A program made the translations under genes and the position numbers. DNA of 11,380 nt from a virus. The stretch is taken from the IMG/VR virus record IMGVR_UViG_3300036045_000388; one strand, 5' to 3'. The notes beneath the pieces are model-generated. The model searched no databases. It was not told the origin of the DNA and saw only the letters and a program-made list of their open reading frames with translations. Shown one piece after another: positions 8 through 1,394 of this stretch (position 1 is its first letter; every line of letters starts with the position of its first letter).

Positions 8-583
8 ATGAGAAGACAACTATCTTTCAAAGATTCTGAGCAATTGGTTGCCTTGAAACGTGCGGAAATCAAAAGACTCAAAGACCCAGAGTCTTATTGT
101 AATTTTACCACTACTGCAAATCCTCATGATCGTGCCCTAATGAACATGTTGTTGCAAAAGGAGCGTCGAAAGGGTGCCAAATACCTTACTCAGCCGCATC
201 CAACCGAGAAAATCCTAATTAAAGGCGTTGCTGTTCCGATTGACCGAGATATAATACCAGTGGTGAATTGGTTGAACAGTTTGCATGGAGTGACAACCGA
301 ATACTGTTGCCAAGGCGAAGTTAATGATCCAGAGCAGATAGAGAACATTTACAGACCATACATAATATGGCGATCCACTAGCATGTATTCAGTGGAACAG
401 ATTTTAATTCGGTTTAATGATTTTCACAAAAAATTTGATGACATTTGCCATGTGTACCATGAGGTACAAACCGAAATAGAATTTTTCGCAGGCAATATCA
501 GGTATTGCTCTCGTTGGTTCGACCATATGGCTTTAATGGATTTTATCAATTGGGCAATGCTAGGAGAACAATATAATGCTTGA
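8..583 (+). CDS. hypothetical protein (191 aa), Cys/His-containing, no recognisable family
   Basis: ATG at 8 and TGA at 581-583. The 3' end overlaps the next gene's ATG (576) by 8 nt (ATGCTTGA), so the two are probably co-translated. I recognise no domain. Confidence 0.5.
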   Translation: MRRQLSFKDSEQLVALKRAEIKRLKDPESYCNFTTTANPHDRALMNMLLQKERRKGAKYLTQPHPTEKILIKGVAVPIDRDIIPVVNWLNSLHGVTTEYCCQGEVNDPEQIENIYRPYIIWRSTSMYSVEQILIRFNDFHKKFDDICHVYHEVQTEIEFFAGNIRYCSRWFDHMALMDFINWAMLGEQYNA

Positions 584-1394
584 GACAATTGGAGCTTTTG
601 GCCTATTGCTTTTGACTGTAATGACGTTTCTGTTAATTGCAGTCCTAAGAAAAAGCAATGATAAGACAACTTATTTGGGCATGGTGCAGCAGTTCAACCC
701 AGATAAAGAAGTGACTACTGTACTTCCGGTGCCGCTTCATGCTGCAACCTGTGACCATGATTGGGAGACTACGCAGGAAACAGTCCTAGATATGCCGCAT
801 GAAAAGAAGGCGATTGTTATTCTTACATGTAGAAGGTGTGGTTCTATTGACAAAACAGTTCAAGTAACTTCACCGGCTCCCCCGCCTTCGCCGCCCCTGC
901 CGCCGCCTCCGTGCAAGCATGATTGGAATGTTGTTACACAACAGAATCTTGAAGTGGCTCACGAAAAGAAGGTTGTTGTTGTAATGACTTGCCGCAACTG
1001 CGGTCAGGTCGATAAGACAACTGAGGTCACTAGCAAGGCACCGCCTCCTCCATCTAAAGAGTGGACTAAAGCAGAATGTTGCCACCAATGGGACGTTGAG
1101 AAGCGTGTGGTCATAGATTCGGCTTACGAACAAATGCTGAAGAGTATCAGTGTAAAACAGTCTTATGGCGGCAAGGCGAAAGTCGATGCTGACAAGCAAA
1201 TTAAATTGAACCTAGATGATGCTCCACCTTGGATGTTTAAGAAAACATTCATTTGTATTAGAACTTGCAAGAAGTGCGGTGATATTGATAAGGTAATTGC
1301 TTCCAACTTCGATTCTGATGGCCCAGAGGAGGGTGAAGAATCCGTCATGCAGGAAGATATAGCTGCGAGAATCCCTCGCAAAGAAAAGGCTTAA
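576..1394 (+). CDS. N-terminally membrane-anchored protein with three tandem zinc-ribbon-like repeats separated by polyproline linkers (272 aa)
   Basis: A hydrophobic stretch at residues about 6-25 (AFGLLLLTVMTFLLIAVL) is followed by a positive patch (RKSNDK), consistent with a signal anchor. Two close copies of C-x-H-D-W...HEKK-[AV]-[IV]-V-[IVL]-[LM]-TCR-[RN]-CG-x-[IV]-DKT-x-[QE]-VTS-x-APPP are followed by a degenerate third copy (CCHQWD...CIRTCKKCGDIDKV). The linkers are SPAPPPSPPLPPPP and KAPPPPSK. TAA stop at 1392-1394. Confidence 0.6.
   Translation: MLETIGAFGLLLLTVMTFLLIAVLRKSNDKTTYLGMVQQFNPDKEVTTVLPVPLHAATCDHDWETTQETVLDMPHEKKAIVILTCRRCGSIDKTVQVTSPAPPPSPPLPPPPCKHDWNVVTQQNLEVAHEKKVVVVMTCRNCGQVDKTTEVTSKAPPPPSKEWTKAECCHQWDVEKRVVIDSAYEQMLKSISVKQSYGGKAKVDADKQIKLNLDDAPPWMFKKTFICIRTCKKCGDIDKVIASNFDSDGPEEGEESVMQEDIAARIPRKEKA

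Follow-up and report, generated by a model that had tools for sequence, protein, structure and literature searches.

What might a phage do with a protein in which Cys/His repeats, set apart by polyproline spacers, follow an N-terminal membrane anchor? Such a protein is encoded at positions 576 to 1394 of IMG/VR virus record IMGVR_UViG_3300036045_000388, which we analysed as a stretch of 11,380 nucleotides (nt), here called the window. We refer to the product, 272 amino acids (aa) in length, as the zinc protein, and we see about an even chance that it is a cytoplasm-facing membrane tether or adaptor of jumbo phages that carries modules of the phrog_5841 type; the tethering function is one that we infer. 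An initial annotation, prepared from the DNA letters alone, had described the anchor, the repeats and the spacers, and had ventured that the protein could be a membrane receptor or an anchor for the products of downstream genes, among them a vault protein (MVP). Relatives were sought among 5.8 billion proteins at E <= 1e-3. The evidence given with the features below includes an alignment of 34 sequences (A1), a separate alignment of modules 1 and 2 (A5), and AlphaFold2 models with their predicted local distance difference test (pLDDT) values.

562..566, + strand: Shine-Dalgarno-like AGGAG, 9 nt 5' of the ATG at 576 (read from the sequence)
576..1394, + strand: coding sequence of the putative 272-aa membrane-tethered triple zinc-ribbon protein, with its TAA stop at 1392-1394 (list of open reading frames, homologues, substitution rates dN/dS)
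585..647, + strand: predicted transmembrane helix, residues 4-24 (TIGAFGLLLLTVMTFLLIAVL), with MLE before it and RKSNDK after it (hydropathy, AlphaFold2, flanking charges)
648..740, + strand: juxtamembrane segment, residues 25-55, with the motif DVTTVxPxPL, in which T47, T48 and P51 are invariant (A1; pLDDT 59-76)
741..872, + strand: module 1, residues 56-99, a predicted short-form zinc ribbon with proposed ligands C59, H61, C85 and C88 (ligands invariant in A1 and A5; hhalign 99.1%)
873..911, + strand: linker 1, residues 100-112, PAPPPSPPLPPPP (77% Pro)
912..1037, + strand: module 2, residues 113-154, a predicted short-form zinc ribbon with proposed ligands C113, H115, C139 and C142 (alignments, hhalign)
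1038..1076, + strand: linker 2, residues 155-167, APPPPSKEWTKAE (sequence, composition)
1077..1313, + strand: module 3, residues 168-246, the canonical long form by sequence, with proposed ligands C168, H170, C231 and C234 (alignment, free-standing matches, AlphaFold2)
1314..1391, + strand: C-terminal tail, residues 247-272, acidic (isoelectric point, pI, 4.4) and disordered, with a basic patch, RKEKA, at its end (pLDDT, composition)

The gene was where the initial annotation had placed it. The frame at 576..1394 on the + strand is the longest open reading frame (ORF) over its bases in the ORF list, and its start overlaps the stop of an upstream ORF (8..583) by 8 nt (ATGCTTGA). The window as a whole is phage-like, with many short and mostly co-oriented ORFs, and encodes NADAR, an MVP homologue, a DUF1508 protein and SAICAR synthetase; when all of it was searched by megablast, the only match was 54 nt inside purC. 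The gene was compared with that of a 90%-identical homologue at locus L022, which gave a nonsynonymous rate (dN) of 0.043, a synonymous rate (dS) of 1.57 and a dN/dS of 0.028. The differences were concentrated in the helix, in linker 1 (together with a 3-residue indel) and in the tail, and the modules were almost unchanged. A pseudogene was thereby excluded, and the gene is shown by this comparison to be real and under purifying selection.

The search returned 58 relatives, most of them full length and 35-90% identical, none of which bears a curated annotation. Some are encoded on contigs of 543-623 kb. Three homologue loci came from IMG/VR, including two whose viral contigs measure 373 and 390 kb, and nine more were found in metagenomes from lakes, groundwater, sediment and soil. 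No homologue was found in the 185,579 representative bacterial and archaeal genomes of GTDB, and tblastn of the full protein against 50,697 GenBank phage records returned nothing at E <= 1e-3. The surroundings of the homologues are typical of huge phages, with dense small ORFs and genes for a tRNA synthetase, a release factor and CsrA; their neighbours further include a methionine-aminopeptidase-like M24 protein and a faint match to T4 gp13. Judged from these sequences, the zinc protein belongs to a clade of jumbo phages.

All three modules carry both a C-x-H-x-W and a C-x-x-C-G knuckle, and the proposed ligands are invariant in alignments A1, A3 and A5 (the four ligands of modules 1 and 3 across the 34 sequences of A1, and those of modules 1 and 2 in A5). 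Two other cysteines of the window protein, C169 and C227, are not conserved. When local alignments between modules were compared with 1000 shuffles, the z scores were 23 for modules 1 and 2, 9.0 for modules 1 and 3 and 7.0 for modules 2 and 3, and no shuffle reached the observed score. The repeats first reported therefore lie far beyond chance, but the spacing given for their motif does not hold, as HEKK follows C-x-H-D-W after 11 residues and not 14. Between modules 1 and 2, identity is 54% in protein and 57% in DNA (57%, 76% and 37% at the first, second and third codon positions), the same codon is used for 11 of the 25 residues that are identical in both, and no DNA-level repeat is left in the gene. 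Divergence of the codons with retention of the protein points to an old duplication held by selection at the protein level, in agreement with the initial annotation, which had seen diverged DNA copies of a selected motif.

Roughly 58 homologues retain both the Cys/His modules and the Pro-rich linkers, which upholds the reading made from the single sequence. Three modules are present in 50 of the 58 and two in the remaining eight, some of which are truncated fragments; in the 34-sequence alignment, six distant homologues (P0052 and P0054-P0058) are full-length two-module proteins from which module 2 is missing. The linkers are rich in proline in every non-fragmentary member, with length and sequence varying freely, and the tail, with pLDDT below 50 at residues 250-267, is likewise variable. 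PPP runs are numerous in many family members; overlapping PPP triplets number 5 in the window protein and reach 9 elsewhere in the family. Ribosomes normally stall at runs of this kind, which require elongation factor P, and translation of the zinc protein may therefore depend on this factor of the host.

The module also has a counterpart outside this family of membrane-anchored proteins. The window protein matched phrog_5841 in two stretches (E = 6e-10); this is a PHROG family of unknown function, and its name adds no mechanism. A search of 1.84 billion cluster representatives with the family profile gave 147 proteins, comprising 54 multi-module relatives (E <= 1e-10) and about 90 proteins of 60-70 aa that align with module 3. 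Among 49 of these free-standing small proteins that were scanned, 48 were members of phrog_5841. They follow the pattern MxCxHxW-x7-L-x-SA(Y/F)EQM-loop-FxKKxIxIxxCxxCGKxxKxxxxNP, have neither a hydrophobic segment nor a signal peptide, and are basic, with a median pI of 9.0. Their hosts are large T4-like phages: tblastn located them in Vibrio Straboviridae of about 250 kb, and structural matches in BFVD were to the free-standing proteins of Aeromonas phage 65.2 and Vibrio phage phi-pp2. The annotation is hypothetical protein in all cases.

Alignment of modules 1 and 2 with the free-standing family by hhalign (99.1%, E = 8.7e-19) left one clean 20-residue gap, which covers a helix and a loop. 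The SA(Y/F)EQ helix, the loop and the FxKK strand are kept and highly conserved in module 3 and are absent from modules 1 and 2, which carry the 20-residue deletion. In the basic module 3 (pI 8.6) the helix reads DSAYEQMLKSI and the strand WMFKK, and the insert is conserved in the family as DSAYEQMLKSI...APxWMF(R/K)K. Given this conservation and the match to the free-standing proteins, module 3 is by sequence comparison the canonical form, and modules 1 and 2 are the same module minus the helix-loop, that is, shortened derivatives. The third repeat had at first been taken for a degenerate copy, but it is the best-conserved part of the family. For the free-standing proteins no Pfam family and no solved relative was found, and the zinc protein itself gave only sub-threshold noise against Pfam, NCBIfam and PADLOC; the best scores against Pfam zinc-ribbon families (Zn_ribbon_ZPR1, Zn_ribbon_RPB9, zf-CCHC and others) were 13-17 bits, against cut-offs of 21-27. 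No publication on the zinc-protein family was found in the literature. The earlier remark that no known family could be recognised is accordingly correct for curated families (Pfam, NCBIfam, PADLOC) and solved structures, but the module is catalogued as phrog_5841.

Structure prediction, a check that the initial annotation had proposed, pointed to a zinc-ribbon sheet in all three modules. Run on the family alignment, AlphaFold2 modelled the zinc protein at a mean pLDDT of 80.5, with a three-stranded antiparallel sheet in every module (pLDDT about 84-95). The strands span residues 63-72, 77-85 and 91-97 in module 1 and residues 117-127, 130-139 and 145-151 in module 2; a helix is placed at 183-191 in module 3, and the tail is disordered. 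Modelled alone, module 3 reached a pLDDT of 84. In all modules of the model, strand 1 directly follows the CxH pair, and strands 2 and 3 are joined by a turn that holds the CxxC pair; this is the arrangement of a zinc ribbon. From the invariant CHCC tetrad and this predicted fold we infer that the modules bind zinc. Sequence searches of the PDB with three profiles gave no significant solved relative.

The side of the membrane on which the modules lie bears directly on their possible role. Residues 4-24 are strongly hydrophobic, with a Kyte-Doolittle mean of 2.3-2.6 over 19 aa, and AlphaFold2 places an N-terminal helix at residues 2-27 (pLDDT 86-95). A hydrophobic helix is present at the N-terminus of every non-fragmentary family member, and the membrane anchor first proposed for the protein is thus upheld by hydropathy, by the model and by conservation in about 58 homologues. 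Only a few residues, acidic in character (consensus MxE), precede the helix, and basic ones (RK, KK, RR) follow it. In all 35 members with a clean uncharged core, Lys plus Arg was higher after the helix than before it, with means of 3.5 versus 0.11. By the positive-inside rule this bias predicts that the N-terminus is outside and the C-terminus inside (N-out/C-in). Together with free-standing relatives that have no export signal, and a Cys3His site that fits a reducing cytoplasm, the bias indicates that the zinc modules probably face the cytoplasm. The same charge pattern argues against an outward-facing receptor, and the suggestion that the protein is a membrane receptor was dropped.

Were the orientation reversed, with the N-terminus in and the C-terminus out, the helix would be a signal anchor, the proline rods would span the periplasm as in TonB or an i-spanin, disulfides would link the cysteines, and an envelope-related function would be expected, for example in lysis, superinfection exclusion or an injection block. 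An N-terminal anchor followed by rigid Pro-rich spacers is the layout of TonB, and many phage exclusion and lysis proteins are small and bitopic. We nevertheless regard this orientation as very unlikely, as in 35 of 35 members the positive charges follow the helix, an acidic N-terminus (MxE) precedes it, each module combines three invariant cysteines with one invariant histidine (an odd number of cysteines, in the pattern of a metal site), the free-standing homologues are without signal peptide, and no TonB_C or spanin match was obtained. Other readings of the N-terminal region were also rejected: a Sec signal peptide on account of the acidic n-region; a lipoprotein, as the conserved AATC that precedes module 1 might suggest, because this motif has Thr at -1 and is separated from the helix by about 35 residues; and a TonB-like periplasmic rod, for which the charges predict N-out/C-in in 35 of 35 members and TonB_C gave no match.

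We propose that the zinc protein would be a single-pass protein of the inner membrane, with a short acidic N-terminus outside, one transmembrane helix, and the remainder in the host cytoplasm. The cytoplasmic part would consist of three small structural zinc ribbons (Cys-His-Cys-Cys) on stiff Pro-rich spacers, ending in the acidic tail. Each ribbon would copy a module that is normally free, soluble, basic and about 65 aa long, the last copy being full and the first two lacking the helix. Displayed in several copies at the inner face of the membrane, the module might recruit or sequester a multivalent cytoplasmic ligand, the candidates being nucleic acid and protein assemblies of the host or the phage. 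The combination of multivalency, a basic module and an acidic tail suggests avidity-driven binding of a repetitive ligand. Several points weigh against this proposal. None of the neighbouring genes is retained in the family as a whole, so that gene context provides no hint of function. The topology has been read only from the positive-inside rule and from analogy with the free-standing relatives, and zinc binding only from the CHCC tetrad and the predicted fold. Pro-rich rods beside a membrane anchor are, moreover, also typical of periplasm-spanning proteins such as TonB.

The neighbouring genes suggest two more specific partners. In close relatives the order is an M24 peptidase, small ORFs in some cases, the zinc gene, variable genes, NADAR and MVP where present, a minus-strand ORF, and SAICAR synthetase. 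The vault protein homologue of the window is the following.

3399-5987, + strand: MVP homologue of 862 aa (MVP shoulder, E = 1.5e-28; Vault_3, E = 8e-10)

Its gene starts 2 nt past the end of NADAR (3397), and five related jumbo-phage loci encode versions of the protein with 65-70% identity. The sole report of phage MVPs to date is a 2023 preprint, which deals with unrelated gut phages and makes no mention of zinc proteins. The initial annotation saw in the zinc protein, as the first of an MVP cluster, a possible membrane receptor or anchor of the downstream products. Applied to the MVP particle and its neighbours, this would mean that the knobs on their rods dock the highly symmetric shell to the membrane. 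A multivalent tether would suit a repetitive shell, and an MVP gene does lie 1-4 kb downstream on the same strand in six loci (the window, L016, L017, L018, L024 and L026). All six fall into a single subclade of a rough tree, however, so that the linkage can be explained by shared gene order, and variable genes lie between the zinc gene and MVP. At no fewer than ten homologue loci (among them L002, L004, L005, L008, L009/L010, L014, L019, L020 and L021) MVP is absent within the fetched flanks, and the most distant homologues, L019 and L020, share none of the neighbouring genes of the window. Confinement of MVP to one subclade indicates that the zinc protein is older and more widespread than this association. 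The proposed co-occurrence thus failed, we hold a role as MVP anchor to be highly improbable, and a tempting link between the zinc protein and the phage vault protein is removed as unsupported.

The second candidate partner is encoded directly downstream of the zinc gene, and related enzymes were located by the homologue search in three further loci.

1489-2409, + strand: HPAT-like (GT95-type) GT-A glycosyltransferase gene (PF23452, 28.3 bits against a cut-off of 23.9; D114-P-D116)
L024, 1473-2306: HPAT-like gene of a relative
L025, 10432-11250: HPAT-like gene of a relative
L026, 10735-11577: HPAT-like gene of a relative

The D-P-D (DxD) motif is invariant among the HPAT-like enzymes, which have no transmembrane segment. 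Their relatives form only 10 clusters among the 5.8 billion proteins, six of which carry a precomputed HPAT-family hit; none was found in IMG/VR or in the GTDB representative genomes, and a literature search found nothing on phage HPAT-like enzymes. In four genomes, representing at least 4 of the 10 clusters, the gene adjoins a zinc homologue on its downstream side, the zinc proteins being 52-60% identical. The gap between the two genes is 94 nt in the window, 38 nt in L025 and 3 nt in L026, and one small ORF lies between them in L024. HPATs have been described as plant-specific (PMC4738400), and their substrates are the Ser-Hyp4 repeats of extensins and hydroxyproline-containing peptides (PMC8012813, PMC5371791).

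This arrangement raises the possibility that the zinc protein is a substrate or partner of the HPAT-like enzyme, and that Ser/Thr-Pro linkers such as VTS-PAPPPSPP and APPPPS are O-glycosylated, which would stiffen or protect the rods. The neighbour passes the Pfam threshold for PF23452 and has the invariant DxD, belongs to a tiny family of which at least 4 of 10 clusters adjoin the zinc gene, and is encoded directly downstream in the four genomes; without a transmembrane segment, it would share the cytoplasm with the linkers, and extensin motifs are known HPAT substrates (PMC8012813, PMC5371791). We still see only a slim chance of such a relationship. Most homologues, among them those of the 90%-identical L022 and of L016-L018, which are MVP-positive, have no enzyme neighbour, and the HPAT-positive P0040 is almost without polyproline (PTTPQP, TSPKTK), against SPAPPPSPP and APPPPS in the window. 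Neither the window nor the fetched loci showed a prolyl hydroxylase or 2-oxoglutarate oxygenase. Gene content varies from phage to phage in the stretch directly after the zinc gene, the target of phage glycosyltransferases is often DNA instead, and the Pfam score is modest. That one subclade might hold an enzyme-substrate pair, with HPAT-like O-glycosylation of the tether rods yielding an extensin-like glycoprotein in a bacterial cell, is scarcely probable; if true, it would be the first such protein glycosylation outside plants and algae, encoded by a bacterial virus. The recurrence of a plant-type glycosyltransferase beside a Pro-rich protein is a lead to a possible new viral protein glycosylation.

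Between the stop of the zinc protein and the start of the HPAT-like gene lies a further element.

1403-1486, + strand: cloverleaf-like element with a canonical T-arm (GGCAGGTTCGATTCCTGCC) followed by GCCGCCA (minimum free energy -39.2 kcal/mol, z = -2.8)

ARAGORN, and Rfam at its gathering threshold, found nothing in it, and a restricted Rfam scan gave a weak match to permuted tmRNA (RF01850), at 18 bits where the threshold is 84. None of the related loci has the element, which may be a remnant of a tRNA or tmRNA or an old attachment site.

The remainder of the window holds several other genes of interest.

6011-6286, - strand: small Cys-rich ORF of 91 aa with CxxC pairs, in a pattern unrelated to the CxHxW module
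6596-6790, + strand: small Cys-rich ORF of 64 aa with CxxC pairs, overlapping the end of the DUF1508 gene (6328-6621) and unrelated to CxHxW
8274-10229, + strand: 651-aa protein with four KOW/SH3-like repeats, each beginning near (K)[VI]GD, at residues 265, 378, 503 and 592
10252-11187, + strand: SAICAR synthetase (purC), an auxiliary metabolic gene (Pfam, E = 3e-60)

The purC gene is syntenic with the zinc gene in most relatives and is usually preceded by a conserved 186-aa ORF (7666-8226, minus strand). In the 651-aa protein, helical segments rich in Arg/Glu or Gln/Arg (residues 236-248, 341-361 and 570-582) precede repeats 1, 2 and 4; its KOW match is sub-threshold only, and a relative is encoded upstream of the zinc gene in L017. 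Genes for IS605 OrfB or Cas12f-like TnpB were found inserted at different sites of the syntenic block in two related phages (L016, 5551-6714; L021, 10140-11243), which marks the block as an insertion hotspot.

Regarding the zinc protein itself, a common but unstudied phage protein, phrog_5841, can now be read from its sequence conservation and modelled fold as a predicted zinc-ribbon module, here fused in tandem to an anchor, and the zinc protein represents a new architectural variant of this uncharacterised phage zinc-ribbon family. If it does act as a tether, the fused form would offer a handle for finding the ligand of the whole module family, by virtue of its being pulled to the membrane and binding with avidity. 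It could also reveal how very large phages organise a process at the inner membrane of the host.

The closest likeness is to phrog_5841 itself (with phrog_7696 and phrog_8294), whose members share with the window module the CxHxW knuckle, the SAYEQM helix, the FxKK strand and the CxxCG knuckle. They are single-module, soluble proteins with neither anchor nor linkers, whereas the window protein has three copies behind a transmembrane helix, two of them without the helix-loop. Ribbons of the ZPR1 and NrdR types scored below significance and differ in pattern, with C-x2-C...C-x2-C in place of the C-x-H...C-x-x-C seen here, and they are without the helix insert. Among membrane proteins, ZAS anti-sigma factors (zf-HC2) are anchored in the membrane and sequester a cytoplasmic partner there by means of a cytoplasmic Cys/His zinc site. 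The zinc protein resembles them in its anchor and its probably cytoplasmic Cys/His site, but the zinc domain of ZAS factors is N-terminal to the transmembrane helix and here it is C-terminal; identity with a ZAS factor was rejected, as H-x3-C-x2-C is absent, the domains come in the opposite order and Pfam gave no match.

Two further systems resemble the proposed arrangement in layout. The p16.7 protein of phi29 is a phage membrane organiser of DNA replication, in which an N-terminal anchor keeps a nucleic-acid-binding domain at the inner membrane face. It has a coiled coil and a helical DNA-binding domain in place of zinc ribbons, and no homology with the zinc protein was detected, but by analogy the basic free-standing relatives (pI 9.0) would be compatible with binding of nucleic acid. 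ZipA, the tether of FtsZ in E. coli, has one globular head and no zinc, against the three putative zinc ribbons here, and is related to the zinc protein neither in sequence nor in fold, with no Pfam ZipA match. Its N-terminal transmembrane helix, N-out/C-in orientation, long Pro-rich linker and cytoplasmic binding domain nonetheless form a layout like the one that we propose for the zinc protein.

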